Source of the DNA: a virus
Lineage: Duplodnaviria; Heunggongvirae; Uroviricota; Caudoviricetes
DNA length: 64,000 nt
Direction: 5' to 3' (one strand)
Virus record (IMG/VR): IMGVR_UViG_3300006217_002764
The notes beneath the pieces were generated by a model. It saw only the letters and a list, made by a program, of their open reading frames with translations, made no database searches and was not told the DNA's origin. Position 1 is the stretch's first letter; the number at the start of each line of letters is the position of its first letter. A program made the translations under genes and the position numbers. This document shows positions 3,667-62,997 of the stretch, piece after piece.

Positions 3667-4365
3667 AACATCAGCTCCTTTCTTTTTCGTTCCAAGAATA
3701 GGGTATGTTCCGGCTTTTCGTGACGGAACATGGGTATTTCACGGAAAGCGGCGGTCACTTTCCCTAGTCTTCGTTATCTGATTCCATCCATTACACGGCA
3801 TTACGTTCCGCTACACGATATTCAATTGGCATTGCATACCGTTGCCCTTCACTAGATCCCATTCCATTCCCATCATCAGATACTCAGACTGTCGCCCCTA
3901 CCATGCGCCCTGCGGCTTATGGAGTACGTGGAAAAGTCCCAAGCCTCTTTCAGGAGCGCATGCTCTTCGTGCATGCTTGGTTCATGACTGGACGTCATGC
4001 CCCATCCTTTCAGTCAGCTTTCCTGATCGTCTTGTTTCTTTTGCTGTTGCCTTTTCTTTGGTTTTCTTGGATTTTCCGGTTCTGTGTTTCGTGTTCCTGT
4101 GTGCTCCTTTTTGTTGATTCGTCGTCTGGTTTTCTGTGATCAGCGCTTCGCTGGTTTTGGGTTCGTCTTTTGTCCGGGGAACAATTCCCCGAACCTCTTT
4201 TTGTGTTCCCTGCTGCTCTTGATGAGATGGGGGCGGGGCGCGATTCCTTTATCAGTATATGCTAGACTGAACTTGTTGGCTAACCGCCGTCGGCGGCACA
4301 TCGTTCCGTTCGTTGAACGCTGTCGGTGGATGCCATATCCATCCACAAACCATAGGAGGAGCCAC

Positions 4366-5040
4366 ATGGCCGCATGGGACTACACCAACAATTGGGGCAA
4401 TGACATTGCCGCAGACAATACTCAGGAACCAGCCGTACCGGAAGACGCAATTGAACAAGACACCGCCTCGGGGGAGGAAGCGGAACCGGAAACACCGAAC
4501 GCGTTCCCAGGGGAATCCGATAAGACGACATCCAGTGAACCAGCCGAAGAATCCACTGTCGCACCTTCCACGGCCTCCACGAAACGGAAGGCGGTGAAAA
4601 AGAAGAAAGACACGATCGCGAACGTTGACGCCAAGGATGTGCGCAAGCTTTATGATGTCGTTGAATATCTCAAGTCGGATGAGCATGCGGTCGCCGTCGC
4701 CAAGCTGATGACCAATTCGAACAAGTCTGATGTGTTCGAGCTGGCTGCTGAATTGACCAATGGCCGTAACGCTGTCCGTATCCGCAAGTTTGTGGATATG
4801 GCGCAAAAGCTTGGTGGCGCGACCAGTGCGACGGTCATGGCATTGGTCATCATTGAGTTCACCTCCCACCGTGATGGCGTGAAGGATGTGTTTGGCCTGC
4901 TGAACGCGGTTGCGCCGGATCGTGAGTTCGGGCGTGTGAACAAGCCGGAACCGGAGAAGTATTTCGATTACGCGTCGCAAATCGCCTCGAAGTGGGGCGA
5001 TGGCGTGGATATGGGTATCGTGCCGTTGCTGCGAATCTGA
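4366..5040 (+). CDS. hypothetical acidic protein
   Basis: ATG at 4366 preceded by RBS AGGAGG. Acidic N-terminal half and Lys-rich linker. Confidence 0.55.
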   Translation: MAAWDYTNNWGNDIAADNTQEPAVPEDAIEQDTASGEEAEPETPNAFPGESDKTTSSEPAEESTVAPSTASTKRKAVKKKKDTIANVDAKDVRKLYDVVEYLKSDEHAVAVAKLMTNSNKSDVFELAAELTNGRNAVRIRKFVDMAQKLGGATSATVMALVIIEFTSHRDGVKDVFGLLNAVAPDREFGRVNKPEPEKYFDYASQIASKWGDGVDMGIVPLLRI

Positions 5041-5198
5041 ATTGGTGTGTCGGTATCCGATATTGGCGGGTGGCCTCTGGGTCATCCGCTTTTTGCATTT
5101 GACGGCATGAATAACGTTCATATGTGCTATACTGGTTTTGTCCACAAAAACATGGGCGGCGATCCTGCCGCGCACCACAAAAAAGGAGCCACGTCAGC

Positions 5199-5579
5199 AT
5201 GCAAACCCATAGGGTCATCACTGCGAAACTCCATCCGATGTATTGGGGTCTGATTCACTCGTGTGAGAAGACCATCGAAGTTCGTGACAATCAGGACACA
5301 GACGTATGCGCGGGTGATGTGTTCCAATTCATCCATCCGACCACTCGTGAGATTCTCGGGTACGCGCGCATCAAGGCCATGGTCGAACTCCCGGACGGGT
5401 GGACGTTGGGGATGGTCGCGAGCATCGCCCGCATCAGCATGACGGATGCGGAACGTCTGTTCGGTTATCTGACCGTGGAGGGCCGGGGTGAAGCGTATCT
5501 GAACCTGTATGAAATCGAGCCGGTGGATACGACCGCCATGTTGGAACAGTTCGCAAAGGAGAACAAGAACCATGAGTGA
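5199..5579 (+). CDS. ASCH (PUA-like) domain protein
   Basis: ATG at 5199 after RBS AAGGAG. Sequence LHPMYWGLIHSCEKTIEVR...GDVFQF resembles the ASCH fold. Promoter motif lies 60 nt upstream. Confidence 0.55.
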   Translation: MQTHRVITAKLHPMYWGLIHSCEKTIEVRDNQDTDVCAGDVFQFIHPTTREILGYARIKAMVELPDGWTLGMVASIARISMTDAERLFGYLTVEGRGEAYLNLYEIEPVDTTAMLEQFAKENKNHE

Positions 5580-5871
5580 GACGACAGTGAAGGAAGACGT
5601 GACGCGCATTCCTGATAGCAAGGGCCTGTACTTGGACAAAAAAGGCGACCTATGGGGTGTGAGCAAGGAGCTCATAGCATTGCAACTCACAGACGAAGAA
5701 GGATTCTGTGAATTCTACTATGACGATTCCTGCTATACCTTCGACTCCCGAAATGATAGCCCCATATTGGAATACACGGATTTCCTTGATCTGACTAACT
5801 CTCGTGATGCCCGTCAAGCCGCTGAATTGTATGCGCCCTTTACCCGCGTCACGGGTTTCGTCACTGAATAA
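5572..5871 (+). CDS. hypothetical protein
   Basis: ATGA overlap with the ASCH gene stop. 99 aa. Confidence 0.45.
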   Translation: MSETTVKEDVTRIPDSKGLYLDKKGDLWGVSKELIALQLTDEEGFCEFYYDDSCYTFDSRNDSPILEYTDFLDLTNSRDARQAAELYAPFTRVTGFVTE

Positions 5872-5895
5872 CGATCGTAGAGTTGGGAGGTTCTG

Positions 5896-6288
5896 ATGCT
5901 TGACGCTCGAATGCAACAAGCGTATCTGGCGTCGTTCCAATACGACGACATCGACCATGAGGCCTTGCCCGGTGATGATGATTACACGCCGCGTGTGGGA
6001 GACGAGGGCGTGTTGTACATGGATTATCCGGATGGGTCAGGTGACGCGGAGGAACTGATGTTCCGTGTCGGGGCTATGGGTTCAGGCCTGCCGGTCATCG
6101 AGACGCGCACATCCACCGATACTGATTGGGATGAGGAGCCGCTGCTGTTCTTCGATCTGGTCGATCCCAGCGGCGGCATGATCCTTGTGTTGCAATCCCG
6201 TGCACATGTGGGCGAACCGCCCCAATACCCGTACGACATGACGGAAACCGATCCGAAACTCTTCGACCTCGACAAGGAGAACCTATGA
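5896..6288 (+). CDS. hypothetical acidic protein
   Basis: 130-aa ORF. Stop overlaps the RNA ligase start (ATGA). Confidence 0.5.
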   Translation: MLDARMQQAYLASFQYDDIDHEALPGDDDYTPRVGDEGVLYMDYPDGSGDAEELMFRVGAMGSGLPVIETRTSTDTDWDEEPLLFFDLVDPSGGMILVLQSRAHVGEPPQYPYDMTETDPKLFDLDKENL

Positions 6289-7394
6289 GCCGCAAACTCG
6301 TCAGCGTCCAGACCATCAGCCGGATCGAACCAATCCCGGGAGCCGACCGTATCGTGCTCGCGCACGTGCTGGGTTGGAAGGTCATCATCAGCAAGGACAT
6401 GCACCTATCCGTGGGCGACAAGGTTGCGTATTTCGAAACGGACAGCCTGCTGCCCGAATCGGATCCACGCTACACGCAGTTCATGCCGCGTGGCATACGC
6501 CACGTGCGGTTGGAGGACGGCGCCATGGTCACGGGGCATGTGCTGCGCACCATGAAGATGCGCGGCGTGTACTCACAAGGCTTGGTCATGCGATTGGATG
6601 ATCTGGGGTTGTCGGACACGCTGCCGGTGGGTACGGACATCACTGAAGCATGCAATGTCATCAAATACGAGCCGCCCGTGTTCACCGGCCGTGGCGCCAA
6701 CCGTCAGGACAAGGCATTGCAGCGCGCCATGCAGGGCATCATCGGCGAGTTCAACGCGCCATGCTCCAAGTCGGATGCCCCACGTGCCCAGACCCTCACC
6801 GGCATCTGGCATGAACTATGCAAACTGGAGGCGGTGCCTACGGTGAAAGTAGACGGGATGAGCCTGACGTTCTTCTTCGACGGCAGCGAGTTGCACATGT
6901 TCACCCGCAACTATGAGGTCGATCCCACACACCCGGATTGGCGGGACGCATGCGAGCTCGCGCACCGTTATTTCACCTCACGTATCGGCGGGTTGAGCGT
7001 GTTCGACATCGGCATGGGCATGTGTGTGCAGACCGAATACGCCGGACCCGGCATCAACGGCAACCGGCAGAAGCTAGCCAAGCGTGACCTGTTTGTGTTC
7101 GCCGTCTGGCAGGACGGAGAGAAACTGCCGCGTGACGAATGGGAGGATTCGTTCCTTGCGCGCGCGGCCCCTGAAGTCAACCCGTGGGAGTACCCGCTCG
7201 CCGACAGCATGGACACGTTGATCAGTGCCGTGGACGGCATGCGCGGCCACATCACCCCCGACGCGTTGGACGAAGGCATCGTCTGGCATCTCGACCCGAA
7301 CCAGCCCATTCCCGACACGGTACGCGGCGAGTTGGGAGACAACCTGTGTTTCAAGATCATCAACAACTCGTACCTGACCAAACACCACCTGTAA
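6285..7394 (+). CDS. ATP-dependent RNA ligase (N-terminal OB/tRNA-binding-like domain plus nucleotidyltransferase)
   Basis: Ligase motif I KxDG (VKVDGMSLTF) with a downstream covalent nucleotidyltransferase-like region. The N-terminal VSVQTISRIEPIPGADRIVLAHVLGWKVIISK resembles the OB fold seen in DRB0094-type RNA ligases. Confidence 0.65.
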   Translation: MSRKLVSVQTISRIEPIPGADRIVLAHVLGWKVIISKDMHLSVGDKVAYFETDSLLPESDPRYTQFMPRGIRHVRLEDGAMVTGHVLRTMKMRGVYSQGLVMRLDDLGLSDTLPVGTDITEACNVIKYEPPVFTGRGANRQDKALQRAMQGIIGEFNAPCSKSDAPRAQTLTGIWHELCKLEAVPTVKVDGMSLTFFFDGSELHMFTRNYEVDPTHPDWRDACELAHRYFTSRIGGLSVFDIGMGMCVQTEYAGPGINGNRQKLAKRDLFVFAVWQDGEKLPRDEWEDSFLARAAPEVNPWEYPLADSMDTLISAVDGMRGHITPDALDEGIVWHLDPNQPIPDTVRGELGDNLCFKIINNSYLTKHHL

Positions 7395-7407
7395 GGAGCA
7401 GTGACTT

Positions 7408-7842
7408 ATGGAACAATTGGAACTCTTCACTCTTGGAAACAATCTCGTCACAGCCGGGCACTGCCTGGACGCCTTGGCAAAGGCGAACGACATGATGCAA
7501 GCCCTGTTGAACGCCACCCGCGTCAGCGACGTCCATGACATGCACGACGACTACCCGACCCTGCCCGCCATCGTGTTGCCGTCCGAAACAACACCGGTGC
7601 AAGCATACGCGTTTCGCACCCGGTTGGCTGACTGCGAGGTCTACACCTGCGTGACAGTGAACCCGGATGATGTGGCCTGTGGCGTATTCAGCCCGGACGA
7701 CAACACATGGACACCCTACGAATTGGCCCAATCACTGACTGAGGACGCCGGTTACGGCGCGGACAACGACCTGTTCGACCTGACCTACAGCACACTGTTC
7801 GACCGTCTCGACCTCAAGCACATGGACACCATCGAAATCTAA
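7408..7842 (+). CDS. hypothetical protein
   Basis: 144-aa ORF in a co-directional gene string. Confidence 0.45.
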   Translation: MEQLELFTLGNNLVTAGHCLDALAKANDMMQALLNATRVSDVHDMHDDYPTLPAIVLPSETTPVQAYAFRTRLADCEVYTCVTVNPDDVACGVFSPDDNTWTPYELAQSLTEDAGYGADNDLFDLTYSTLFDRLDLKHMDTIEI

Positions 7843-7851
7843 GAGCGAACA

Positions 7852-8559
7852 ATGACTGGGAAAGAACCGACGAAACTCACCCTCATCGACACACCACTAG
7901 GGCACACCGCCTGGAACATGGACGATAACAACCTACTGCTGGTGTCCAGTGAAAACGAGCAGGAGACCACTGGGCTGTTGACGCGAATGGCCCAACAGGT
8001 GCGAAAGATGGGAGGGCGCGCGGTGTGCGCGGACACGGAACACGATTGGCCCACCCCGGGCCAGGGTGTCGATTCCGTCAAACCACGACAGTATGAATTG
8101 CTTCGCGCATACTGCGCACTGGCCCATGCCGTAGCACAGGTACGTGCCGAACAAGCTTCTCTCGCATATCCACCCTTCGTCATATTCATCGACCATTTCG
8201 ATCTGATGATGATGCGGGTCAACGAGCAGCCAACCCCCCACAAGACGGCCGGCATCCTACACGACATGCAACAACAGCTGGCCTCGATCATGTCCCATAC
8301 GGGAGTTGGGGTCGGTGTCGTGTTGTGCGCACAGAAGTTCGACACAGGTGTTCAGGCTGCCACGAAATGGGTTTTCCCGGAATGGTTGGATTCCGCCGAC
8401 CGTGTGCATGTCGATAAGCAGGGGCACATCCGTATCGAGCAGGGGGATGTGGACCTTTCCCTCACAATTCAGGATGAGGGGGCGGCATACGACCTGCTGA
8501 TGGAAGCCTTGATGGACGCCTTGCAACGGTTGAAACACACAGGAACAGAGGAGGAATAA
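7852..8559 (+). CDS. hypothetical protein
   Basis: 235-aa ORF. Weak Walker-B-like FVIFIDHFD. No clear family. Confidence 0.5.
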   Translation: MTGKEPTKLTLIDTPLGHTAWNMDDNNLLLVSSENEQETTGLLTRMAQQVRKMGGRAVCADTEHDWPTPGQGVDSVKPRQYELLRAYCALAHAVAQVRAEQASLAYPPFVIFIDHFDLMMMRVNEQPTPHKTAGILHDMQQQLASIMSHTGVGVGVVLCAQKFDTGVQAATKWVFPEWLDSADRVHVDKQGHIRIEQGDVDLSLTIQDEGAAYDLLMEALMDALQRLKHTGTEEE

Positions 8560-9174
8560 ATGTCGTACCAGTCTTGGCTTGACGCATGGAACGCGTATAA
8601 GGATTCAAAACAACCTGTCTGGCAGTACATCAGCGAACACGGGTGGGATGCCAAAACATGGTCATGGCTCGTCCCCTCGGCCGCCATGGCCCTGCTCATC
8701 CTCGCTGTCGTCGTATGTCTTGCCGGTGGCGCTATCCACAAGTTGCGAGTGAAGCGCGCCCCGGTCGAACAGCATGCGGACGTCGCCCTCAAGACGAAGA
8801 TCGACAACATTCCTTGGCTGCTGTGGGCTGTCGCGTCATTCATCCCTCTAGGTTTGACCATGATCGCGCTCCCCGACATAGGTTTCAATCCGGTTTCCAT
8901 CCAGACCGTCCAAGAACCCGTGTCGTTCACGCAATATGTCGAACAAGCCACGGGCACCCGTGACCTGACCTGCACCAAGGGAACCGGTGAGGAAACCTCC
9001 ACAATCGGCCCCTATGAGGATGCTGTGCCTGCCACGGGGTTCTACCAGTGCAACGCGATCCTCAAGGACGGTTCCATCCCAAACCTGACCCTGCACGTAG
9101 ATCAGGAGGCCCGTGAGTTCACTCTGGCGGATGCGGCCGCCGGGCAACCAGTGACAGAGAAAGCCTATCGATGA
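8560..9174 (+). CDS. membrane protein
   Basis: Two predicted TM helices (LVPSAAMALLILAVVVCLAGGAI and ASFIPLGLTMIAL). Confidence 0.5.
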   Translation: MSYQSWLDAWNAYKDSKQPVWQYISEHGWDAKTWSWLVPSAAMALLILAVVVCLAGGAIHKLRVKRAPVEQHADVALKTKIDNIPWLLWAVASFIPLGLTMIALPDIGFNPVSIQTVQEPVSFTQYVEQATGTRDLTCTKGTGEETSTIGPYEDAVPATGFYQCNAILKDGSIPNLTLHVDQEAREFTLADAAAGQPVTEKAYR

Positions 9175-9367
9175 TCGGTACGGAACAGGTGGAGCGTGCC
9201 GCGTTTGCGCTCATGTGCACGATGACGAATTGGGCGGATGGTGATAGGACGCCGCAAACGGTGAAGCGTGAGTATTGGATGCGGATGAACCCGGACGTCA
9301 AGGAACAGTATTACGGGTGGGCGCGCACCGTATTGGACGCTGCCACCCAAGGCGACGAGGAGGAAGC

Positions 9368-10579
9368 ATGAAGGACTGCAAACACGGACAGGTGCGTGAG
9401 AATAAGCGATATCTCACGCTCGGTTCCACCAAGCGGGGTAAACCATGCTTATGGGATCCGGTCAAAGAAAGCGGTATGTTGCTGGTCACAGGACCGACAG
9501 GTTCGGGGAAAACCTGCCTATTGGCAATGCTGGCCACGCAGACGCTGACCAATGGAGGGCGCGTGTTCTACACGTCCTTGGCAAAAGACTCCGATTTCCC
9601 TGATGCAGTGCTCCGGCATTGCGATTCCGTCACGGGCATAGGTGACTTCGCTGGTGTGGTCGATCATCTCGAACGCCTATGTGACGAGTTGGAGCAGCGG
9701 GCTGCTCTTGTGGTGGAACACCATACGGACTCCATCTACAAGATCGACGAAAGCATGGTATCCGCTGGTGAACAGCATCTGATTGCACCCGTGACTGTGA
9801 TCATCGATGATTTCGATTACCTGTTCCAATGGTGGCACACACACCCGGAGGAATATGCCCGAAAATTGGATGTCTACAGGCTTATGGGCAGCCTTGCCGC
9901 ACTGGTGGGACGGGGACGTCTGCTCGGAATACGGTTGGCCATGGCTGCACAGCACTTCACCATCGATGATATGGTGTCGGTTCCCCCTATCGGTCATGCC
10001 CTGCGGTTCGGCGTCGAAGTGCAGACACTTCTTTCGCCACGCTGGCACGCGGACTACTTCTCCCGCTATGCCAAACAGTCAGGCATCCTCCAGCTCGCCT
10101 GTTTCGACGGCGAACAACTGGCGGATACGCACGCCGGCCTCCCACAAAAACCACGGGCGGACACAAGTGGCAAACGCGACCTGCGGTTCACCGGCGATAG
10201 TGACGACATGCATGTTCTCGTCCCGTTGAGCAATAACACGTTCGCCTGCCGGCCGGACGAATGCCCAGTGGTGTTGACCAACCACAGTACCGAGGATGAC
10301 ATCATCCTCGAATGCGCACGCTTGTTGGACATGTTGGAACCAATGCGCGACCACAGTGACCGGTTACTGCCCAGCGCGTATTGGAACACATGCAGTGCAC
10401 TGCACCAGCTGGTTGCAGCATTCACGGATTGCGATCCAAAAACCACAATCGCCCAATCATACGGGGGTCTGCCACGTGTCACCTGCCTGCATGGGGAATT
10501 CGACTCATGGGAAGCGTACGCGCAACATGCAATCCACTACACGCCTGAACCGGATAATGGGAAAGGAGTGGAATCATGA
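9368..10579 (+). CDS. FtsK/SpoIIIE- or VirD4-like P-loop ATPase (putative conjugative coupling/translocase protein)
   Basis: Walker A LVTGPTGSGKTCLL and Walker B-like VTVIIDDFD. ATG at 9368 overlaps the stop of the upstream small ORF. Confidence 0.55.
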   Translation: MKDCKHGQVRENKRYLTLGSTKRGKPCLWDPVKESGMLLVTGPTGSGKTCLLAMLATQTLTNGGRVFYTSLAKDSDFPDAVLRHCDSVTGIGDFAGVVDHLERLCDELEQRAALVVEHHTDSIYKIDESMVSAGEQHLIAPVTVIIDDFDYLFQWWHTHPEEYARKLDVYRLMGSLAALVGRGRLLGIRLAMAAQHFTIDDMVSVPPIGHALRFGVEVQTLLSPRWHADYFSRYAKQSGILQLACFDGEQLADTHAGLPQKPRADTSGKRDLRFTGDSDDMHVLVPLSNNTFACRPDECPVVLTNHSTEDDIILECARLLDMLEPMRDHSDRLLPSAYWNTCSALHQLVAAFTDCDPKTTIAQSYGGLPRVTCLHGEFDSWEAYAQHAIHYTPEPDNGKGVES

Positions 10580-15514: not shown

Positions 15515-15548
15515 AGGTTGTTTTGTGGATAATGTCAGTATAGCATAT
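15515..15548 (-). promoter_or_regulatory. element-wide conserved promoter motif (extended -10 TGCTATACTG plus TCCACAAA)
   Basis: Minus-strand reading gives cagacatatatgcTATACTgacattatccacaaaac. Same motif upstream of at least 14 genes. Confidence 0.55.
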
Positions 15549-15674
15549 ATGTCTGTCGTCGCAGACGCATATAAGCACAGAAACCGAACCAGGGCCTTGC
15601 GCGGAAAACCGTCTCGCTATTGGACGCGACACGCGGTGCTATACTGAACTCGTGCAAAAAGATACAATTGAGGC

Positions 15675-17112: not shown

Positions 17113-17237
17113 GATGCTCCTTTCCACGGCCGGAACCGTCGGTTTGCAGACAGGTTCAGTATACCACGGGACTGAACATGCCCACAAAAACACCATATAT
17201 GCTAAATTGAACATATCCACAAAACCAAGGGCCCTAT

Positions 17238-20971: not shown

Positions 20972-21235
20972 CCTATCCAAACCGTTGCAAAACCAAGGTT
21001 CTGCAACATTAGGGAACCCGAAAAACTTCAGCTTGCCCCACACGCGTGGACATGACCACCTTGCGGCGGTCAGCTTCAAGTCTCACACCACCAGTTCGAC
21101 GGCTGCTTGATAGGCGTTTCATCGAACCTGTCCAGCAAACCCGAAGGTGGCTGGCACTGGGTTCTCCACGCCCGTTGTCCGTATCCGCCACACTCTCGAA
21201 AAGTGTGGTTCGTGTCCTGCACAAGCCTCTTATGC

Positions 21236-21266
21236 AGCTGTCTTCAGTATAGCACATACATGTTTA
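21236..21266 (-). promoter_or_regulatory. conserved promoter motif upstream of the CRISPR-like array
   Basis: Minus-strand reading gives catgtatgtgcTATACTgaagacagc. Partial match to the element-wide motif. Confidence 0.4.
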
Positions 21267-21482
21267 TGAAGCGGGCCGTCGCGTCAACATCACCCCGTCC
21301 ACGTATTGTTCGACCATCATCGGCTCGTGTATGTACGCTGGCGCCCGTGTTCGCCGTTGTGCATGCCAGTTGGCGCCATATCTTGCGGTGCCATGATGCG
21401 GCTCGCCGTACATACAGTGTGATTTGCACCAGACATGGGAGCCGTGAAATACTGAAACCGTACACAAAACGGGAAGACAACG

Positions 21483-28954: not shown

Positions 28955-29030
28955 TCCTGTGGTTTTGTGGATAATCTCAGTATAGCACATATATCGCATG
29001 TTCTCCCCCGGCGTGTTCTCCTATACTGGA
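28955..29030. promoter_or_regulatory. divergent conserved promoter motifs
   Basis: ttgtggataatctcagtatagcacatat (minus promoter) and cctatactggaaccatccacaaaa (plus promoter for the hydrolase). Confidence 0.5.
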
Positions 29031-29072
29031 ACCATCCACAAAACCACCCCGAACCCATACAAGGAACGCCCC

Positions 29073-31717: not shown

Positions 31718-31830
31718 ATGTGTGACCCTTTCCGTGGTTTGTGGACAAGTTCAGTGTAGCATATTATGGATGTAATGCCGGTATAGGCCAGTACAATAAA
31801 CAACCAACGCAACCCGATGGGAGGGCGGAC

Positions 31831-33897: not shown

Positions 33898-34096
33898 TAA
33901 TTCAAAAGTTATCCACATTGGTGCAAAGAATGATGCAGCAGTAAGCGTAAGCCTGTGGATAAAGGACGCATGTCCGCGGCGGCAGCGATCTTCCTCAAAA
34001 CTCGGGGCGTGCTGCAAAACACTATATGCTATACTGAACGTATCCACAAAACCCATGGCCTCCACAGGCCCATACCGAAAAGGAACCCATGCAACC

Positions 34097-45785: not shown

Positions 45786-45817
45786 AATGGTGCACAAAAT
45801 AACCTAATCAGATTTTG

Positions 45818-45848
45818 CGAACATGTTCAGTTTAGCACATATAGACGA
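45818..45848 (-). promoter_or_regulatory. conserved promoter motif at head of tRNA array
   Basis: Minus-strand reading gives atatgtgcTAAACTgaacatgttcgc, 30 nt upstream of the first tRNA 5' end. Confidence 0.45.
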
Positions 45849-53087: not shown

Positions 53088-53232
53088 TACCCTTCCCCAT
53101 TGAGCTGATTGGGGGCATGCCTTTTCGGTATGCCCCCAATCTTATTTGGCATGTTACTCAACCGATGCTGAGATGCACCGTTGGTCCATGCAGATAACGG
53201 TCTTATTGCCATTCCGGCATGCCAGACTGTCG

Positions 53233-54469: not shown

Positions 54470-54486
54470 TATTCGCCTTTCCCTCT

Positions 54487-55056: not shown

Positions 55057-55237
55057 TTGCCAGTTCCTTGTTGTCTTCTGCCGGATTGTTCTGCAACGCG
55101 TTGATGCGGATGCGAATGCTGTTGATATCCTCGGCGCCACCGTTGAATTGGCGGCGGTCGAGCAGCGCGCATATGACGAATACGGCGATGATCGCTGCTA
55201 GGACAAACCAGCAGCCCATGATGAATGCATTATCCAT
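55037..55237 (-). CDS. small membrane protein
   Basis: 66 aa with one TM helix CWFVLAAIIAVFVICALL. Confidence 0.35.
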   Translation of the reverse strand: MDNAFIMGCWFVLAAIIAVFVICALLDRRQFNGGAEDINSIRIRINALQNNPAEDNKELANESDSH

Positions 55238-55880: not shown

Positions 55881-56108
55881 TCAACGCATGTTCATGCGGC
55901 ATTCGATGATGTCTGTGATGACTGCGCCGATTGGTATGGCGCTTGCGATTAGTAGGGCGAACATGCTGAGTGCAAGCAGGGGGTGTTCGCATGCATTGTT
56001 CCCAAGAAGGATGATGACCGATGCGATTAAGGCTGGCATGGCGAGTGTGGCATGGATGAGGTGCTGTCGCCTTGATTGGATGATCTGTGCATATTTCTTG
56101 GGTGTCAT
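55881..56108 (-). CDS. small membrane protein
   Basis: Two TM helices. Conserved promoter motif at 56123-56155 immediately upstream. Confidence 0.4.
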   Translation of the reverse strand: MTPKKYAQIIQSRRQHLIHATLAMPALIASVIILLGNNACEHPLLALSMFALLIASAIPIGAVITDIIECRMNMR

Positions 56109-56122
56109 GGTCGGACTCCTTG

Positions 56123-56155
56123 GTTTGTGGATAATCTCAGTATAGCACATATGGA
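56123..56155 (-). promoter_or_regulatory. conserved promoter motif
   Basis: ttgtggataatctcagtatagcacatat on the plus strand, a near-identical copy of the 28955 instance. Confidence 0.5.
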
Positions 56156-56244: not shown

Positions 56245-59040
56245 TCAGCCATCCAGCGAATCCGAAACGGATTGCGACGAACCGTCACCACCCGTATCAG
56301 TCGCATCTCTCCCAGCATTCTTGTCAGACTGATCGTCATTGACATTCTTGCGATTGCGGCGCAAGCGCAACACGCACGCATACAACACCGCGCCAATCGC
56401 CACCAACGCCCCTGCGAGAGCCGCGACCATACCAGTGTTCACGCCCGTGTTGGCAAGCTGGCCATCCAAAGCCACACCAGAGGATCCCGCGCCCTTGGCC
56501 CCAGCCACCGCATGCACCTTGTACACGGTCTTCACCAGCCCGTCACCACTGGTCACGGTCAACACCGCATCAGCGCCATGCTTGTCCACAGCCACGCTCA
56601 TGCCACTCGCCTTGTCGTACTGGGCGACAACCGTCCACTCGTCCGGGTCGGCGACCTTGACCTCATACTCCAGCTTCTTCGGGTCGAAACCCTCAACGGC
56701 TTTACCGTCCACGCTGATACCATCCAACACAGCCTTGTTCGTAGCCGGTGTCAGATACGTCGCCTTGTAGACGTGCTGCGCGAACGCCTGACCGTTCGGC
56801 GCGAGCACATTGACCGTATACGTGAACGTCATCCCATCACGCGCCACGGTCACCGTGGATGATTGGCCAACCTTCGCCTCATACGAGAACACACCGCCTT
56901 CGGGAATCCGGAACTCAGCTGAGTTCTGCGGCACATACTTACCCGAGGCGTCCACGTATCCCACGGAGGCAAGGTTCGTGTCCGCATCCGAATCCGCTTC
57001 GACGCTTGCTGTCTGCACGATCGGCGTCTTGGGTTGGAAATCGGTCACCGCGGTATGCACCGGACGTGTGACAGTCACCGAATACGTGCGAGACGTCCCA
57101 GAAGCAGTGTCCGTCACAATCCATTCCTGCCGTGTGGATTGTGCGGACTGCACCACATTGCCCGCCTTGACGTTCACCCCATCCGGGGCGATGGGAAGCA
57201 GATACGGTGACTGGTTCGCGTCCTTGAGGGCGATGGTGTAGTCCAGACGGTTCGGATTCCAATCATCGATCAGATCCCCTTTGACGTCCTTGCCGGAATA
57301 GTCCACGTAGATGCCTTCAAGTTTGGCGGGGCTGTCGGCCACAATATCCGCCTTGGCGAAGTTGACACGCACCGTGTACGGGATGCCATTGACTTCGACT
57401 TTGAGGATACGGCTGGCGCCGTCCAACGTGACCGTCGGAGTGCCTACAGTGGCATCCACACCCGCTTGCGTCGCCAATGCGAACGAATCCCCCACCGCCG
57501 ATGCGGGCAGTGTGATCGCGTAATCATGCTTGGCGGGGTTGAAATCCGTGAGCGTGATGGTCTTGGATTCACCCTTCGCGTTTGTCTGGGTGATGGTGAA
57601 CGCGGTGATCGCGTCATTGTAGGCGCGGTCTGCGACCGTCTGCACCCTATAGGATTGTTCACCGATTTTCCCCTCGGCTGTGCCATTCATGCGCAGGAAT
57701 TTGACATCGGCGCCATCAATGGTTTGGGTGATGGTTTCAACCTTGCCGTCCCATGTGATCGGAGCTGTATCGCCGTTGGAGAGTATCACCTTGTCCGTAT
57801 TGGGCTTGTTAGCGGAATCCAGCGTATAGTTCGTGTCCGTCGCTGTGAAGAGCCCATCGTCCCCCTTCGTGAAAGAAGAACCGTCCTTGATGGTGATGGG
57901 AGTCCCGGTGGTGGAGCCTTCCTTGATGTTGCCGAAGATCTGGAACGCGGGATGCTCGCCGTTCGCTTCGGCGGTGTAGCGGATTGTGCCGGTGATGGTA
58001 TCCACACCGAGCTGGTCGCCGGGCTTGGTGGTGACGTACCAGTCATTGCGGTCCAAGGTGACGGTCATGCCGTCGCTGTTGGTCGCGGTCAGGGTCTTCG
58101 GCATCCTGTCGTAGGCGGCGGTGAAGTTTGAGCTCATCGCGCCGCCCTTATACAGGAGGTTCGTTTTTACGCCGTCTGCATCGACGAACGTCCACGTGCC
58201 ATTGGTGTCCTCGGCTTCGGGGTCGTCCGCGGCGGCGTGCAGGATGATTTCGACCTTCTGTCCCGCGATCTCGCCTTTGGCTGTACCGACGGATTTGAGC
58301 AGGTGGCGTCCGTTCTCCACGGCTTTCTGTGGTTCACCCCATGTGACCAGCAGGCTTGGCAGGGTGTCGTAGTGGCCGTTGAATCCTTCACGGTCGGGGT
58401 TGTAGAAGATGACCTTTTCGCAGCTGCCTTGCCACCCGTCGCCGTTCTGGTTTTTGAACATTTCGAATGTGTGCTGGTAGTCGAAGCGGTAGGTGTCGTC
58501 ACCGGCCTTGCGCGTCGCATAGGAAGCACGGTCGAGATTCCAGAATCCGATAGGTTCGGCGTCGTAGGTGGCGTAGGTGATCCTGATGGGCATGCCGTCC
58601 ACGACGCCGGAGAACTGCCGCGAGTTCGCCTTGGTGGTGCCCAGCGGCACAGGGGTGTCCGCGTTGAAGCCACTGGCGGCGAGTTGCACGCGTTTGCTTT
58701 TGGTGCCGTCCTTGTAGGTGACGCTTGCTGTCATGGTGAGATCGTTTTCTCCGAGGATGGGGGTCCGGTAGGCGCGGCCGACCCATGCGCCGTCCTCCCA
58801 TGCCATGTTGTCGCTGGTGCCGATGGCGAAGCTGGTGCCGAAGTTGACGGTGTCGATGTCGATCCGTTTGACGTTCGCGGCCTTGGCGTCCAGTGAACCC
58901 GCATTCGAGGTTGTGGATACGGTCGGCGCCGATGATGGTGCATCCTGTGCGGTGGCGGGCAGCGTCATGCCGCCGGAGAGTGTCGCGGCCGCAATCAGGG
59001 ACGCAATCGTCGTCGTGGTTGTCTTCAATGGTTTGTTCAT
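56245..59040 (-). CDS. giant LAXTG-anchored cell-surface protein (putative adhesin)
   Basis: Signal peptide MNKPLKTTTTTIASLIAAATLSGGMTLPATAQD. C-terminal sorting signal LANTG plus hydrophobic helix plus RLRRNRKN (class-E sortase-type LAxTG). Repetitive beta-rich body. Confidence 0.7.
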   Translation of the reverse strand: MNKPLKTTTTTIASLIAAATLSGGMTLPATAQDAPSSAPTVSTTSNAGSLDAKAANVKRIDIDTVNFGTSFAIGTSDNMAWEDGAWVGRAYRTPILGENDLTMTASVTYKDGTKSKRVQLAASGFNADTPVPLGTTKANSRQFSGVVDGMPIRITYATYDAEPIGFWNLDRASYATRKAGDDTYRFDYQHTFEMFKNQNGDGWQGSCEKVIFYNPDREGFNGHYDTLPSLLVTWGEPQKAVENGRHLLKSVGTAKGEIAGQKVEIILHAAADDPEAEDTNGTWTFVDADGVKTNLLYKGGAMSSNFTAAYDRMPKTLTATNSDGMTVTLDRNDWYVTTKPGDQLGVDTITGTIRYTAEANGEHPAFQIFGNIKEGSTTGTPITIKDGSSFTKGDDGLFTATDTNYTLDSANKPNTDKVILSNGDTAPITWDGKVETITQTIDGADVKFLRMNGTAEGKIGEQSYRVQTVADRAYNDAITAFTITQTNAKGESKTITLTDFNPAKHDYAITLPASAVGDSFALATQAGVDATVGTPTVTLDGASRILKVEVNGIPYTVRVNFAKADIVADSPAKLEGIYVDYSGKDVKGDLIDDWNPNRLDYTIALKDANQSPYLLPIAPDGVNVKAGNVVQSAQSTRQEWIVTDTASGTSRTYSVTVTRPVHTAVTDFQPKTPIVQTASVEADSDADTNLASVGYVDASGKYVPQNSAEFRIPEGGVFSYEAKVGQSSTVTVARDGMTFTYTVNVLAPNGQAFAQHVYKATYLTPATNKAVLDGISVDGKAVEGFDPKKLEYEVKVADPDEWTVVAQYDKASGMSVAVDKHGADAVLTVTSGDGLVKTVYKVHAVAGAKGAGSSGVALDGQLANTGVNTGMVAALAGALVAIGAVLYACVLRLRRNRKNVNDDQSDKNAGRDATDTGGDGSSQSVSDSLDG

Positions 59041-59089: not shown

Positions 59090-59125
59090 CATGGTTTGTG
59101 GACTATTTCAGAATAGCATATATGG
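59090..59125 (-). promoter_or_regulatory. conserved promoter motif
   Basis: ttgtggactatttcagaatagcatatatgggg. Minus-strand promoter for the surface-protein gene. Confidence 0.45.
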
Positions 59126-59136: not shown

Positions 59137-60522
59137 TCAACGAAGGTCGTGATGTTCGATGATCGCGGCAGCGACATCATCTGCCGTACGCCAAACGTTA
59201 TCATTGTTGTGGTGTTTGGCGGCTTCGCGTACCTGTTCGGCCGTGCGTCGCGCTTGGTCCTTGTTGCCGGTGCGGTAGTCGGCGAACGCCCCTAGGGATG
59301 TGGCGAGCCATCCCGCCCCATGTGTGTCGTCCGCGTTGTTGGCGACACAATCCATGATGGTGGACATCTTCTCAGCATCCTGTTGGCTCCATGTGTCGGT
59401 CTCCGAAGACAGTCGGTGTCGCAACCTTTGCGCCAGACCGGGTTCGTCGCCGCTTCGTGTGGATGTCATGGCGGTGACGACATCCACGGTTTCGGCGGGG
59501 TCATGGTTCAATCCCAATGCGATCGTGGACATGGTGTCCATGTCGGCGGTCGGGTTGGGTGCATCGAGGATCCTGTGTGTGGCGTCCCTCACGTTGGCGG
59601 TGAGTGTGCCGTCATTGCCCGTATAGGCGGATTCGCGCATGCAGATGACATCGTTCAGGTCACGGCCCGCGTATTGCGCGTTGCGTTCGTTCTGCCGGTA
59701 CATGTCAGCAGTGGCCCGGTCCTGTTCGCTCAACAGGGTGTCGGATTCACGCAGATGGTGGTTGCCTCCATCCTCGTAGATATATTGCTCGTATGCGTCT
59801 TCGTTGTTGTTCATGGTGATGATTTGCTTGGGCGACAGGGATTCCACGTTGAGGCCGGGATGACGGCAGGACAGTTCGTATGCGGCCCGCGCGTACACGG
59901 GTTTGCCCGCCCATGCCTGTTCCCATTCGGCATCGCTGACGAACCCGTCGGGTGTGGCGTGCACGTGTTCGCCTGGTTCGAAGTCCATGGATTCGCGGGA
60001 TTGTCCGGCTAATTGTTCGCCGGTCCGTCGGATGTCGGATGCCATGCCTTCGCCGATGGGTTCGTCGAGATCATAGTCGTCTTCTTCGTACTTTTCCGTA
60101 TAGTACGCATAGGTGGGATGCTGGTCGTACGTGTCGGTGTAGATGTCCCCCTCATCGTAGGCGGCTTCGATCTCGTCCGGGGACATTTTCGCCACGTCAT
60201 CGCTGGTGTATCTGCCGTTGTCGGCGAGCATCCACGCCTTCTCCTCCAACGGGTGACCGTCCCATACTTCATCCCAATCCTCTTCGGTGACGTAATCGCC
60301 GAAATCGTTGATCCGGTAGCAACCGCCGATGGGAAGGTCATCCCAGTCCTGTTTGCGTTCGAACAATCCTTCGGCGATGGTGTTCGCATTGTCGATGAAC
60401 TGTTCACCCACAGGCAGACTGTTGGTTGTTGGCGTGGGTACACGCAGTTTGCTGTCCTTGTTCATGTCGATGAACCGTCCGTCCAATCCGCGTGCATGCT
60501 CGTTGGGTTTGAAGTTGCTCAT
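59137..60522 (-). CDS. acidic hypothetical protein (paralog of 60547..61575)
   Basis: Shared N-terminus MSNFKPNEHARGLDGRFID and block KQDWDDLPIGGCYRINDFGDYVTEEDWDEVW. Confidence 0.55.
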   Translation of the reverse strand: MSNFKPNEHARGLDGRFIDMNKDSKLRVPTPTTNSLPVGEQFIDNANTIAEGLFERKQDWDDLPIGGCYRINDFGDYVTEEDWDEVWDGHPLEEKAWMLADNGRYTSDDVAKMSPDEIEAAYDEGDIYTDTYDQHPTYAYYTEKYEEDDYDLDEPIGEGMASDIRRTGEQLAGQSRESMDFEPGEHVHATPDGFVSDAEWEQAWAGKPVYARAAYELSCRHPGLNVESLSPKQIITMNNNEDAYEQYIYEDGGNHHLRESDTLLSEQDRATADMYRQNERNAQYAGRDLNDVICMRESAYTGNDGTLTANVRDATHRILDAPNPTADMDTMSTIALGLNHDPAETVDVVTAMTSTRSGDEPGLAQRLRHRLSSETDTWSQQDAEKMSTIMDCVANNADDTHGAGWLATSLGAFADYRTGNKDQARRTAEQVREAAKHHNNDNVWRTADDVAAAIIEHHDLR

Positions 60523-61575: not shown

Positions 61576-61590
61576 TCTTCTTGCCCTTTC

Positions 61591-61893
61591 TTATTGTCTG
61601 GCGTAGCGGCAGTGGGCTCCTTTTCCTCCTCCGTTGGCACAAGATGGACGCTTTCGGGCCCGGGCGGCGTGCAACTGGTTTATTAGGTGGCGAATCCCTT
61701 CACGACCCCAATGTGCCGGAATGGATAGCAGCAATCCACTTGAGACAATCAGACCGGTGACGGTGAGCAATGCTTCGCGCCAATCGACGACCCCATCTTG
61801 GGGCACGACCGCTCCAGCATAGGCGATGGTCAGCAATGCGACCCCGATACTGGTTCCGACGCGCAGAAGGACGGTCCGCCAATTGAGCCGCAT
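61591..61893 (-). CDS. small membrane protein
   Basis: Start MRLNWRTVLL with two TM helices. Palindromic promoter motif upstream at 61908-61960. Confidence 0.4.
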   Translation of the reverse strand: MRLNWRTVLLRVGTSIGVALLTIAYAGAVVPQDGVVDWREALLTVTGLIVSSGLLLSIPAHWGREGIRHLINQLHAARARKRPSCANGGGKGAHCRYARQ

Positions 61894-61981
61894 CTCGTCT
61901 CCATCTATATATGATAATCTGAGGCTATCCACAAATATATGGATAGCCTCAGTATACACATGGAAAAGTCGATTTGGGCCG

Positions 61982-62890
61982 TCAGGCGCTGGCGCCGACC
62001 GCGAACCGTTCCGCCCGATACAGGTCCCCGGCGTCGAACTCGATTTCGGTTGGTTGCTTCGGGTACCCGTGGCGGACCGCATAGCGTGCAGCGGCGTCCA
62101 CCCCTTCACCAAGTCCTTCACGCTCACCTTTTTCACGCATGGCGGCGATCCCGTTGAGTGCTTGACGCAAAGCGTTTTTCGCCATGTCCTCGATGGGGTT
62201 GTCGCGGCTGATGGTGAACGGCTGCCAATCGCATGCACCGGTCTTCTCGAACACCCAGAACTGGCATGCCTTCGGCATGCGGGCTGTGCGTTCGAACAGG
62301 TTGGGGTCGGTCATGGCGACGGCCTGCCGGTAGAACAGCGCTTGGATGTGGTACCCGTATTTGATGGCTTCCCGGTGGAAGTCGTCGGCCGATGCGGATT
62401 GAGCGGTTTTGAAGTCCACGATGTAGTCGGTTCCGCGTGGAATGAGGTCGGGTTTGGCTTTGAGGCGCAGCCCGGTCTTGCGGTCGGTCCAGAAGATTGT
62501 GTTCTCGCACCATCCGTCCGCGATCAGGTCGTAGAGTTCGGGGGTGTCGTCGATGAGGTTCTGTTTCATGCGTTCGAGTTTTTGCATGTCGTCCCAGCTG
62601 ACGATGATTGCGCCGGATTCGAGTTGTTCATCTCTCCATTCCCGGTTGGCTTTCTTGGTGAAGGTCTCACCTTCGGGGAGGGCTACTACGGGGGCGGTGC
62701 CCATGATGTAGGCGTGGAAGGCGGTCCCGAAGCGCATGGCGGACGTGTCCGTATGGGTGCCGGGGTTGAGTCGGCCGTATCCCCATTCGGCGGGGTTGCG
62801 TAGGAATTGTTTGAGTTGGCTTTGGTCTATGGCGGGGTCGGCGAAGTACGTTTCGTCGTCCATGTCTTCATAGTGGGTGGCGTTGGTCAT
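61982..62890 (-). CDS. PD-(D/E)xK nuclease of the Cas4/RecB/YqaJ-like (phage exonuclease) family
   Basis: Motifs DLIPRGTDYIVDFKT (D...(D/E)xK) and YGYHIQALFY (QxxxY). ATG at 62890. The upstream part of the listed 661-aa ORF is antisense to the next gene. Confidence 0.6.
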   Translation of the reverse strand: MTNATHYEDMDDETYFADPAIDQSQLKQFLRNPAEWGYGRLNPGTHTDTSAMRFGTAFHAYIMGTAPVVALPEGETFTKKANREWRDEQLESGAIIVSWDDMQKLERMKQNLIDDTPELYDLIADGWCENTIFWTDRKTGLRLKAKPDLIPRGTDYIVDFKTAQSASADDFHREAIKYGYHIQALFYRQAVAMTDPNLFERTARMPKACQFWVFEKTGACDWQPFTISRDNPIEDMAKNALRQALNGIAAMREKGEREGLGEGVDAAARYAVRHGYPKQPTEIEFDAGDLYRAERFAVGASA

Positions 62891-62907
62891 TATGTTCCTT
62901 ACAGTGG

Positions 62908-62997
62908 TGTTTGTGGACATGTTCAGTATAGCAGTGTTGTGGCGACACGCCCAAATGTCAAAAACGCCAATAAGTGCTATACTGAACATGTCCACAA
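62908..62997. promoter_or_regulatory. divergent pair of conserved promoter motifs forming an inverted repeat
   Basis: ttgtggacatgttcagtatagca ... tgctatactgaacatgtccacaaa, facing the nuclease (minus) and SSB-like (plus) genes. Confidence 0.55.

Follow-up and report, generated by a model that had tools for sequence, protein, structure and literature searches.

The 64,000 nucleotides of DNA analysed here (the window) carry one shared promoter-type signal in many copies, with a strong bias towards gene starts. The same signal was published in 2024 for pMP7017, a conjugative megaplasmid of Bifidobacterium breve (Dineen, Bottacini, O'Connell-Motherway & van Sinderen, 2024, Microb Biotechnol 17:e14405; PMC10832533), and the window supplies a further, diverged case of it. 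The motif itself was thus already known; new here is a diverged mouse-gut plasmid with a box variant of its own. We consider it likely that the window sites represent the 34-bp pMP7017 promoter motif in the form it takes on this plasmid, with a promoter half used by host sigma-A and a box and flank read by a factor that is probably plasmid-encoded.

Copies, placement and anatomy of the motif

We identified 12 full copies of cATATrTGCTATACTGa-N4-R-TCCACAAA, seven promoter-half copies with a degenerate box, and two copies of the box alone (Table 1). The box TCCACAAA occurs 15 times in the window (2.39 expected), a count reached in none of 100 shuffles, and TGNTATACT occurs 12 times (0.36 expected). 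A weight matrix placed 13 window sites above 29 bits and 5 further sites above 8 bits, whereas five shuffled windows peaked at 2.2 bits; this measure is partly circular, as the matrix was made from the same 12 full copies that it scores.

All 19 promoter-type sites fall within the 14.8% of the window that is neither coding nor RNA, and both box-only copies are also in this non-coding part (about 15%). Nearly all copies aim at the start of a gene or RNA 14-120 nt downstream. For 15 promoter-type sites before protein genes, the end of the box is 14-54 nt from the start codon; the site at 4276 (+) lies 82 nt ahead of its gene, and two RNA-facing sites precede the tRNA array and a Transposase-2 RNA match. 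The intergenic location of the sites and their orientation towards downstream genes and RNAs support a single promoter-type signal.

An earlier note on this DNA had proposed a recurrent promoter motif, and all 16 of its coordinates map to a site; the repeated sites are confirmed as real. Twelve are full copies of one consensus; the other four (4276 (+), 21238 (-), 45821 (-) and 61943 (-)) have a degenerate box. Absent from that list were the promoter halves at 15653 (+), 17150 (-) and 21461 (+) and the box-only copies at 4342 (+) and 692 (-). The positional bias that had been noted holds, as do both back-to-back divergent pairs (28955/29000 and 62908/62968). The true start of the lysozyme/CHAP hydrolase gene beside the first pair is at about 29073. 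It is not strictly true that the motif always precedes a start codon: the full copy at 61928 (+) has no gene ahead of it. This copy and the minus-strand one at 61932..61965 overlap face to face and make a perfect 13-bp inverted repeat (61919-61931 / 61940-61952); a transcript from this plus-strand copy would run antisense to the nuclease gene. The motif does precede the tRNA array, the surface adhesin, the nuclease and ssDNA-binding protein pair and the RNA-repair operons. Control of the whole element was an overstatement, however, as the motif serves 16 of about 38 transcription units and some 40% of the genes, and no copy other than the tRNA promoter was found in the 35-55 kb cargo region.

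Table 1. Motif copies in the window, in order of position.
Type	Span	Strand	Box	Context
Box only	685..692	-		Intergenic space within operon; 37 nt ahead of start of 3-647
Promoter half alone, TGC TAGACT G	4254..4287	+	Degenerate, TTGGCTAA at 4276	Box displaced 66 nt downstream to 4342-4349
Box only	4342..4349	+		Immediately ahead of ribosome-binding site and ATG of 4366-5040
Full	5119..5152	+	5141-5148	Drives nine-gene operon 5199-10579, including RNA ligase 6285-7394
Full	15518..15551	-	15522-15529	Before 172-aa gene 14971-15489
Promoter half, TGC TATACT G	15631..15664	+	Degenerate, TGCAAAAA	Before 15675-16235
Promoter half, TGG TATACT G	17139..17172	-	Degenerate, TCTGCAAA	Before 16576-17112
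Full, -10 TAAATT	17194..17227	+	17216-17223	Before VirB4-like ATPase 17238-19874
Promoter half without box, TGC TATACT G	21227..21260	-	GCTGCATA at 21238	118 nt ahead of Transposase-2 RNA match 21049-21120
Weak variant, TGA AATACT G	21439..21472	+	TACACAAA	Before SocA/Panacea antitoxin-like gene 21492-21932
Full, left arm of divergent pair	28960..28993	-	28964-28971	Before 28548-28943; probably also ahead of downstream RNA-repair genes (phosphoesterase; kinase-RNA ligase 25072-26805)
Full without TG, right arm of divergent pair	29013..29046	+	29035-29042	Before lysozyme/CHAP hydrolase
Full, -10 TACACT	31734..31767	-	31738-31745	Before 31304-31717; divergent from rep gene 31831-32802
Full	34021..34054	+	34043-34050	Adjoins iteron array on right; before 34097-34936; probably also ahead of two-HTH protein gene 35041-35688
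Variant, -10 TAAACT	45810..45843	-	TTCGCAAA at 45821	36 nt ahead of first tRNA of array 44043-45785
Full	56120..56153	-	56124-56131	Before 75-aa membrane protein 55881-56108
Full, -10 TATTCT	59091..59124	-	59095-59102	Before 931-aa secreted, C-terminally anchored surface protein 56245-59040
Full, -10 TAATCT	61906..61939	+	61928-61935	No gene faced
Variant, TATACT	61932..61965	-	TCCATATA at 61943	Before 100-aa membrane protein 61591-61893
Full, left arm of divergent pair	62906..62939	-	62910-62917	Before PD-(D/E)XK nuclease 61982-62890
Full, right arm of divergent pair	62969..63002	+	62991-62998	Before Enc34-type ssDNA-binding protein 63020-63907

TG is present at -15/-14 in 17 of the 19 promoter-type sites, and a G right after the hexamer and a purine right before the box in every one; no conserved -35 was found across them. 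At least 197 distinct metagenomic copies show the same anatomy. On these features the upstream module, ATAT-TGc-TATACT-Ga, fits an extended -10 promoter such as host sigma-A RNA polymerase recognises without a -35. Like extended -10 (TGn) sigma-70/sigma-A promoters, it has TG at -15/-14, a TAnnnT hexamer, no need of a -35, a G directly after the hexamer and a purine start about 7 nt downstream. Actinobacterial -10 regions favour G just past the hexamer, for example in Corynebacterium glutamicum. Unlike those promoters, the window motif has an invariant C at the fifth hexamer position, ATAT upstream of TG and 8 conserved nucleotides at +2 to +9, none of which is required for general promoter recognition. 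We infer the invariant purine 7 nt past the hexamer as the most likely start of transcription (the published RNA-seq starts for pMP7017 are approximate, according to their authors), and the downstream module TCCACAAA would therefore occupy +2 to +9. There it would lie inside the DNA covered by polymerase at initiation and at the extreme 5' end of the transcript.

The plasmid family and its box variants

The window is part of a diverged mouse-gut relative of pMP7017, a conjugative megaplasmid and not a phage. It shares 24 of its 81 proteins with pMP7017, at 25-52% identity, and the VirB4-like ATPase is 49% identical to its counterpart. Downstream of a RepA_C-type rep gene lie 22-bp tandem iterons containing GGACTATCG, a sequence that fits the published RepB iteron core, GGnCnAnnR. 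This array, previously taken as CRISPR-like and under motif control, consists of replication iterons and is not transcribed by the motif.

In pMP7017 the motif was reported in 19 copies, driving about 24% of the plasmid (a predicted 56 genes). It lies upstream of highly expressed genes, its promoters are highly active by RNA-seq, and it was called a probable transcription-factor site; homologous plasmids were found to carry it and bifidobacterial chromosomes to lack it (Dineen et al., 2024; PMC10832533). Our weight matrix matched 22 sites in the 190 kb of pMP7017, compared with 19 promoter-type sites in the 64 kb of the window. The consensus of these matches, ATATGYTATACTGAATATGTCCACATAAAA, is the motif printed by Dineen et al. 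(2024), and the pMP7017 form is AWAYATGYTATACTGAATATGTCCACATAAAAWA. Common to both plasmids are A-Y/R-A-T-G-Y-TATACT-G-A/G, 4 nt, a purine and TCCACA, at equal spacing, as well as placement before ribosome-binding sites, the plasmid family and absence from chromosomes. The gene classes overlap (RNA-ligase operon, ssb, WhiB operon, conjugation genes and tRNA array). The box differs, being TCCACAAA(A/C)C in the window and TCCACATAAAA in pMP7017. The spacer from -10 to box is much less conserved in the window, GA(A/G)NNT(A/G) as against GAATATG, and because of this divergence the TATGT-CC-ACATA palindrome of pMP7017 is lost. The pMP7017 homologue of gene 16576-17112 is preceded by a full motif, whereas the window copy has a degenerate box.

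The box variant is fixed by lineage. All full copies seen in the window lineage have TCCACAAA (12 in the window, more in loci L253, L256 and L258), whereas 20 of the 22 pMP7017 sites have TCCACATA, the variant of pMP7017-type plasmids. Among loci with two or more copies, 98 of 100 are pure for one variant, although these loci are highly redundant. This suggests co-evolution with a putative reader, or homogenisation among copies; gene conversion, instead of co-evolution with a factor, could produce the same purity.

A composite motif scan of 185,579 species genomes matched 7 stretches, against about 9 that we estimate by chance, and 4 of the 7 look like chance. In B. biavatii and B. ramosum one copy precedes a gene that seems to be an ordinary chromosomal one, a hint that the host machinery may be enough by itself. 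The matches listed from metagenome and IMG/VR scans include large, mostly human-gut, megaplasmid-like contigs. These results support a motif confined to this plasmid family and distinct from the housekeeping consensus.

How the motif may be read

Polymerase contact by itself would not require conservation to reach from -19 to +12, nor the C that never varies in TATACT, nor a box variant fixed by lineage, and therefore a factor that reads the box is the most likely explanation. This candidate factor, probably plasmid-encoded, would recognise the box and its flank and tune the promoters. Together the copies bring a defined set of backbone and early functions under a shared signal: conjugation, origin-flanking genes, ssDNA-binding proteins and nucleases, RNA repair, the tRNAs and a surface protein. 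The operators of KorA and KorB in IncP RK2 are palindromes bound by known repressors. Those regulons similarly place a plasmid-private cis element at many backbone promoters, overlapping the -10 or start region, and coordinate replication, transfer and maintenance genes; the window motif differs in being asymmetric and in having a putative reader. The single control logic first envisaged is borne out as a shared signal, but we found neither a dedicated sigma factor nor a dedicated regulator in the window. Nor did we find a DNA-binding protein conserved between pMP7017 and the window, a negative weakened by the window being only part of its plasmid.

It is possible, though less likely, that there is no dedicated factor and that the motif is an expression cassette optimised for host machinery. 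A strong extended -10 would be joined to a conserved initial transcribed sequence, or to a single-stranded A/C-rich 5' leader, favouring promoter escape, mRNA stability or ribosome loading. The promoter half follows general extended -10 logic without a -35. The leaders are 72% A+C with no common structure, and the box is predicted to be unpaired (mean 0.85). Box-only copies lie just ahead of ribosome-binding sites, one of them 66 nt from its promoter, and many pMP7017 copies stay conserved through the ribosome-binding site. The chromosomal copy in two Bifidobacterium species also agrees with this reading, as do phage T5 early promoters, in which the initial transcribed region is likewise conserved. 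However, sigma-A recognition does not explain the invariant C, and the fixed box difference separates two lineages that both live in Bifidobacterium. The tRNA-array promoter of pMP7017 has an intact box, although nothing is translated there. The 8-nt box is identical in 12 of 12 full copies, tighter than the -10 hexamer, a point weakened by the copies having been chosen by their box.

We regard it as unlikely that the box is an asymmetric stoperator-type site at which a plasmid repressor, at promoters or between genes, damps initiation or blocks elongation. The mycobacteriophage L5 repressor gp71 binds such stoperator/operator sites. Like them, the box is short, asymmetric, present in many copies on one element and always oriented with transcription; it occurs at promoters and in intergenic spaces, and its sequence is lineage-specific. 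It overlaps start sites, and a few copies are intergenic within operons (692 (-), 4342 (+), and 60374 (+) and 107052 (+) in pMP7017). Unlike stoperators, most window copies form a unit with a promoter, at a constant distance from it. There are few box-only sites (about 5 independent loci), and the excess of these ahead of genes (13 of 48, compared with 24 of 276 in controls) is largely due to one orthologous locus. We found no repressor candidate for the window box. Genes with the motif rank with those most strongly transcribed in cells that carry the plasmid, and this activity argues against a simple tight repressor.

It is very doubtful that the motif is served by an alternative sigma factor or RNA polymerase of the plasmid's own, in the manner of T7-like or SPO1-like phages. 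Conservation covers a long (about 30 bp), asymmetric block that spans the start site and is specific to each lineage. Phage T5 early and T7-type promoters are likewise conserved into the initial transcribed region and occur in many near-identical copies per element; the window differs in being from a conjugative plasmid and in having no element-encoded polymerase that we could find. Neither RNA polymerase nor sigma region 2 was found among the 81 window proteins or in the pMP7017 annotation, and the core, TGn-TAnnnT, is that of a textbook extended -10. A motif-driven operon does encode a two-HTH protein (35041-35688) whose HTH segments resemble sigma region 4 at sub-threshold level, but it is an orphan (2 clusters in 5.8 billion proteins), and neither pMP7017 nor 2 Mb of motif-bearing contigs encodes a homologue.

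Lastly, there is next to no likelihood that the motif is simply the host housekeeping promoter consensus, or a chance or repeat artefact without regulatory meaning: its -10 half looks like ordinary extended -10 promoters, but the sites combine a fixed TATACT and box with no -35, whereas the published bifidobacterial consensus is TTGACA-N17-TATAAT, and this reading is already contradicted by chance-level matches in the genome scan set against the copies in pMP7017 and the window, and by conservation of the motif between plasmids with such divergent proteins.

Copies and anatomy of the motif

The motif consists of an extended -10 promoter half, a purine and an 8-nt downstream box, TCCACAAA. The box occurs 15 times on the two strands of the window versus 2.39 copies expected, a count reached in none of 100 dinucleotide-preserving shuffles, and an extended -10 lies at a fixed distance upstream of 12 of the 15. 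TGNTATACT is present in 12 copies versus 0.36 expected. The 12 full copies align as cATATrTGC-TATACT-Ga-N4-R-TCCACAAA-(a)cc. With a weight matrix made from these copies, 13 sites in the window score above 29 bits, and another five exceed 8 bits; the matrix scores the sites from which it was built, and the null is given by shuffled windows, five of which reached a maximum of 2.2 bits. All 16 coordinates listed in the earlier note map to a site (12 full copies and four half-sites).

Motif sites and HTH proteins in the window (window coordinates; each full copy is given by the first T of its box)
Feature	Position	Strand	Remark
Full copies	5141, 17216, 29035, 34043, 61928, 62991	+	
Full copies	15529, 28971, 31745, 56131, 59102, 62917	-	
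Promoter half with degenerate box	4276+, 21238-, 45821-, 61943-	+ and -	in the earlier note
Promoter half with degenerate box	15653+, 17150-, 21461+	+ and -	absent from the earlier note
Box-only copies	4342+, 692-	+ and -	
Two-HTH protein	35041-35688	+	motif-driven operon adjoining the origin
Tandem XRE-type HTH protein	40560-41027		
Zinc-ribbon-plus-HTH protein	50192-50665		

All 19 promoter-type sites are in non-coding DNA outside RNA genes, which makes up 14.8% of the window. The bias towards start codons described in the earlier note holds for 15 of them, which lie 14-54 nt (box end to start codon) upstream of a protein gene on the same strand, but 4276+ is 82 nt from its gene and 61928+ has no gene downstream. 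The site at 45821- is 36 nt upstream of the first tRNA of the array. There are about 38 transcription units in the window; the motif is upstream of 16, which together comprise at least 32 of the 82 genes. The 35-55 kb cargo region (genes for DprA, toxin-antitoxin pairs, an AbiE-like ATPase, insertion sequences and flotillin) has no motif except upstream of the tRNA array. The proposal of one shared promoter logic private to the element was largely right in spirit, but its scope was overstated and the motif is not element-wide.

TG is found at -15/-14 in 17 of the 19 promoter-type sites. The hexamer is TATACT in 12 and TAnnnT in 18, the exception being AATACT at 21461+. A G directly 3' of the hexamer is present in every site, followed by A in 17. 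All 19 also have a purine 7 nt after the hexamer, directly 5' of the box. No conserved -35 hexamer was identified among the aligned window sites or among 197 distinct metagenomic copies in the matches listed; the latter have the same anatomy, with an essentially invariant C in TATACT. From the TG, the TAnnnT, the following G and the missing -35, we infer that the upstream half is an extended -10 promoter that needs no -35 and is of the host sigma-A type. The purine before the box is the probable start site, which would place the box at +2 to +9. The TG and TAnnnT are shared with sigma-A extended -10 promoters, to which the window motif adds a start-site element; the purine, at 7 nt, falls within the 6-8 nt downstream at which the host holoenzyme would initiate. 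It differs from the canonical bifidobacterial promoter (TTGACA-N17-TATAAT; PMC10832533) in that the -35 at 16-18 nt spacing is missing. Experimental support for motif promoters comes from RNA-seq on pMP7017 only, where motif-driven units are highly transcribed (PMC10832533); the supplement of that 2024 paper gives no start-site coordinates.

The predicted leaders are 72% A+C and have no common RNA fold (mean z-score -0.4), and the box in them is unpaired with a mean probability of 0.85. The two halves of the motif are separable, with the promoter half standing alone at seven sites and the box at two. At 4276+/4342+, they are 66 nt apart, and the box still adjoins the ribosome-binding site. Box-only copies upstream of genes also occur in pMP7017 (60374+, 107052+). 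Such copies precede genes in 13 of 48 cases versus 24 of 276 for scrambled control words, a comparison that involves only about five independent loci. Three tandem TCCACA boxes, TTATCCACAATCCACAACAACTGTCCACATAAAAA, are present without a -10 at pMP7017 60340-60400 (10340-10400 of contig L002, a piece of this plasmid), inside an operon and directly upstream of a ribosome-binding site; the locus is kept in many related metagenomic contigs.

Some motif copies have unusual settings. In the divergent pairs at 28960-29046 and 62906-63002, the -10 hexamers are 37 and 47 bp apart; the 10-bp difference corresponds to one helical turn, which with two pairs may be coincidence. At 61919-61952 two overlapping copies face each other; together they make a perfect 13-bp inverted repeat (CTGAGGCTATCCA / TGGATAGCCTCAG) with 8 nt between its arms. 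The copy on the minus strand is upstream of a gene for a 100-aa membrane protein, and from the plus copy a predicted RNA would run antisense to the 3' end of a PD-(D/E)XK nuclease gene. A Transposase-2 RNA match (Rfam, 57.9 bits) at 21049-21120 (-) follows the box-less promoter half of 21238- by 118 nt. It is 1.4 kb from the nearest TnpB-like gene (22493-23521), with an oppositely oriented SocA/Panacea pair between, and appears to be an IS605-associated orphan RNA under a plasmid-type promoter of its own. Two modules of RNA-repair type, 22493-28943 (-) and 5199-7394 (+), each follow a motif copy. The first encodes a fusion of polynucleotide kinase and T4-Rnl1-like RNA ligase (25072-26805), adjoining a metallophosphoesterase (26833-27570). 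The second encodes an RNA ligase (6285-7394) that has a PHA02142 OB-fold and shares 52% identity with its pMP7017 counterpart. An eighth, weak tRNA in the array, at 44256-44315 (-), was identified by Rfam (36.7 bits) and was not reported by ARAGORN.

The carrier of the motif

The gene content of the window is that of a Gram-positive conjugative plasmid. It includes a RepA_C-type rep gene (31831-32802) and genes for a ParA-like protein, a lysozyme/CHAP cell-wall hydrolase and two ATPases, one VirB4-like (AAA_10) and the other FtsK/SpoIIIE-like. Downstream of the rep gene, at 33748-33898, a 22-bp unit, TTTGTCGCGATAGTCCCCATGT, is repeated 6.9 times head to tail without spacers. The reverse complement of the unit contains GGACTATCG and fits GGnCnAnnR, the critical bases of the RepB iterons of pMP7017 (PMC8313286). 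This is the probable replication origin, and probably what the earlier note had called a CRISPR-like array; the lack of unique spacers and the RepB-type core identify it as iteron repeats. The iterons were rejected as a source of the box, as GGnCnAnnR does not fit the motif on either strand. The element is a plasmid rather than a phage: a phage origin was rejected given this gene content, and megablast of 20 kb against 50,697 phage records gave no match. Many motif-bearing, pMP7017-like contigs (L130-L249, 9-217 kb) are filed as viral genomes in IMG/VR, presumably because of phage-like genes (Enc34-type SSB, PD-(D/E)XK nuclease, tail-type lysozyme, RNA ligases).

No near-identical plasmid was found in PLSDB, where the only matches are IS200/IS605 copies on B. 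longum megaplasmids (~75% identity). The VirB4-like ATPase shares 48-49% identity with its counterparts on pMP7017 (B. breve) and on B. longum megaplasmids; its next relatives, in Arthrobacter and Curtobacterium, are ~27% identical. Homologues in pMP7017 were identified for 24 of 81 predicted window proteins (25-52% identity), including the VirB4-like ATPase (49%), rep (50%), an RNA ligase (52%), the ParA-like protein, lysozyme and nuclease. Judged by these predicted proteins, the window belongs to a pMP7017-related conjugative megaplasmid. It is 99.9% identical to a metagenome-assembled contig at NCBI (GCA_948882765.1, 113.7 kb). The window's proteins turn up in hundreds of assemblies, among them several with the label mouse gut metagenome. 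Look-ups in assemblies indicate that this related plasmid lineage is common in mouse-gut metagenomes, and we infer a murine Bifidobacterium as host.

Copies more than 99% identical to window 14366-35806 and 49311-55135 were retrieved from different samples (L250-L255). They display gains, losses and rearrangements of whole modules, some copies missing the IS605 and RNA-ligase block and others having an ssb-WhiB-NT5C operon. The breakpoints (14366, 22004-22028, 26775, 28388, 49311 and 55135) are off the motif sites, so motif copies were rejected as recombination breakpoints.

Lineage variants and occurrence elsewhere

To our knowledge, pMP7017-type megaplasmids are the only large conjugative plasmids in bifidobacteria. 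Dineen et al. (2024; PMC10832533) found them in ~10% of samples from the human gut. The pMP7017 motif was first noticed upstream of six highly expressed genes and then in 19 copies, predicted to drive 56 genes (~24% of the plasmid); it was read as a likely transcription-factor binding site, with no factor named, and was found upstream of comparable genes in related plasmids and to be absent from bifidobacterial chromosomes (Dineen et al., 2024; PMC10832533). We found no later paper naming the factor. A scan of all of pMP7017 with the window's matrix recovers 22 sites, the consensus of which, ATATGYTATACTGAATATGTCCACATAAAA, is the published motif.

The window motif shares with the published 34-bp motif the core ATGY-TATACT-GA and TCCACA 7 nt after the hexamer (12 full copies here), a position within ~60 nt upstream of translation starts (14-54 nt for 15 protein genes here), a carrier of the same megaplasmid family and, apart from one orthologous site among the species-representative genomes, absence from bifidobacterial chromosomes. 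It differs in the 3' part, which is TCCACATAAAAWA in pMP7017 and TCCACAAA(A/C)C in 12 of 12 full copies here. As one box base and the tail differ, we treat the window motif as a lineage variant rather than excluding it from the pMP7017 family. TCCACAAA is present in every full copy of the window and its sister contigs, and TCCACATA in 20 of 22 pMP7017 sites; in the window, TCCACATA was not found in promoter context. Among loci with two or more copies, 98 of 100 are pure for one box variant, although the loci are redundant, and pMP7017-type plasmids carry two orthologous TCCACAAA sites. The box variant is thus fixed by lineage: TCCACAAA here and TCCACATA in pMP7017-type plasmids. Since the motif had already been published for the type plasmid, that of the window is a new, diverged example of a known signal, and the basic published picture is unchanged. 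The TATGT-CC-ACATA palindrome of pMP7017 is lost in the window lineage, and a palindrome or direct repeat within the motif was rejected.

Sequence collections were scanned with the degenerate pattern TGYTATACTGRNNNNRTCCACAWA, which covers both box variants. In 185,579 species genomes (one each, 596 Gb) it matched 7 stretches versus ~9 expected by chance on our own estimate. Judged by these species genomes, the composite motif is not the housekeeping consensus, an outcome that the earlier note had named as refuting its reading. Four of the seven stretches are chance-like (low G+C, unrelated taxa, no ribosome-binding-site context). Two copies of a third variant, ATAGTGTTATACTGAAAnnGTCCACAAAnCATGAAGCGCAA, occur at 1500-1523 and 3505-3528 of a 3.7-kb contig (L009). 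This contig, binned as an uncultured alphaproteobacterium and with 61% G+C, was probably mis-binned and is a plasmid fragment from another megaplasmid lineage. The only chromosomal-looking copies among species-representative genomes are at one orthologous site in B. biavatii / B. ramosum (TGTTATACTGrATGCGTCCACATA; contigs L011, 4082-4105 (+), and L008, 7885-7908 (-)), on large contigs and ~40 nt upstream of an ordinary-looking gene for a 275-aa protein. That gene adjoins a large conserved gene resembling a glycoside hydrolase. Most of the matches listed from metagenome and IMG/VR scans are on contigs from the human gut, which reach 229 kb and often carry several copies.

Candidate readers of the motif

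The motif is conserved from -19 to +12, has an invariant C and shows a concerted difference between lineages. These features exceed what polymerase contacts need, and we read them as pointing to a dedicated reader; gene conversion among motif copies is the alternative. The remaining value of the window is comparative, as the box variant fixed in a second lineage offers a route to this putative reader. The two diverged lineages separate the invariant positions (TG-Y-TATACT-G, the purine and TCCACA) from those that shift between lineages, which is a starting point for finding it.

As a regulon spanning a plasmid, the motif functionally resembles KorA/KorB of RK2. In asymmetry, orientation and lineage specificity it resembles the stoperators of mycobacteriophage L5, and a few box-only sites lie within operons. 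No cognate repressor was found in the window, and the pMP7017 motif promoters are highly active in carrier cells, which disfavors a stoperator-type repressor. Conservation across the start site is shared with the T5 and T7 phage promoter sets. Unlike elements whose promoters are served by an alternative sigma factor or a phage-type polymerase, the window, which is part of the plasmid, was found to encode neither a sigma factor nor an RNA polymerase among its proteins (Pfam, PHROGs, NCBIfam). No Pfam, NCBIfam or PDB sequence matches were obtained for the genes that come first after the motif.

The two-HTH protein has similar HTH segments at residues ~13-39 and ~106-132 and resembles sigma-70 region 4 and ECF sigma factors at sub-threshold level. 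The protein is an orphan, with two clusters in 5.8 billion proteins, and homologues were found neither in pMP7017 nor in 2 Mb of motif-bearing contigs. We rejected it as the regulator, as it is unrelated to the pMP7017 HTH regulator, an orphan, and similar to sigma factors only below threshold. The product of 56245-59040 was rejected as a hidden polymerase, since its signal peptide, repeats and C-terminal anchor indicate a surface protein.

A WhiB-like gene is present in a motif-driven operon in both lineages (site 3761+ of the retrieved contig L253, ssb to WhiB; site 73570+ of pMP7017). WhiB-like proteins bind sigma-A region 4, and we regard the WhiB-like protein as a lead in the search for the reader. 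Tentatively, and with some doubt, the box (TCCACAAA/TCCACATA) may be recognized by a specificity factor that the plasmids encode and that evolves together with each megaplasmid lineage, be it an activator, a sigma-A partner (WhiB-like) or a protein reading the single-stranded 5' end of the transcript. If so, these plasmids would express about a quarter to 40% of their genes through a private channel. The motif is also a compact, -35-independent and apparently strong promoter-leader cassette that could serve expression in bifidobacteria.
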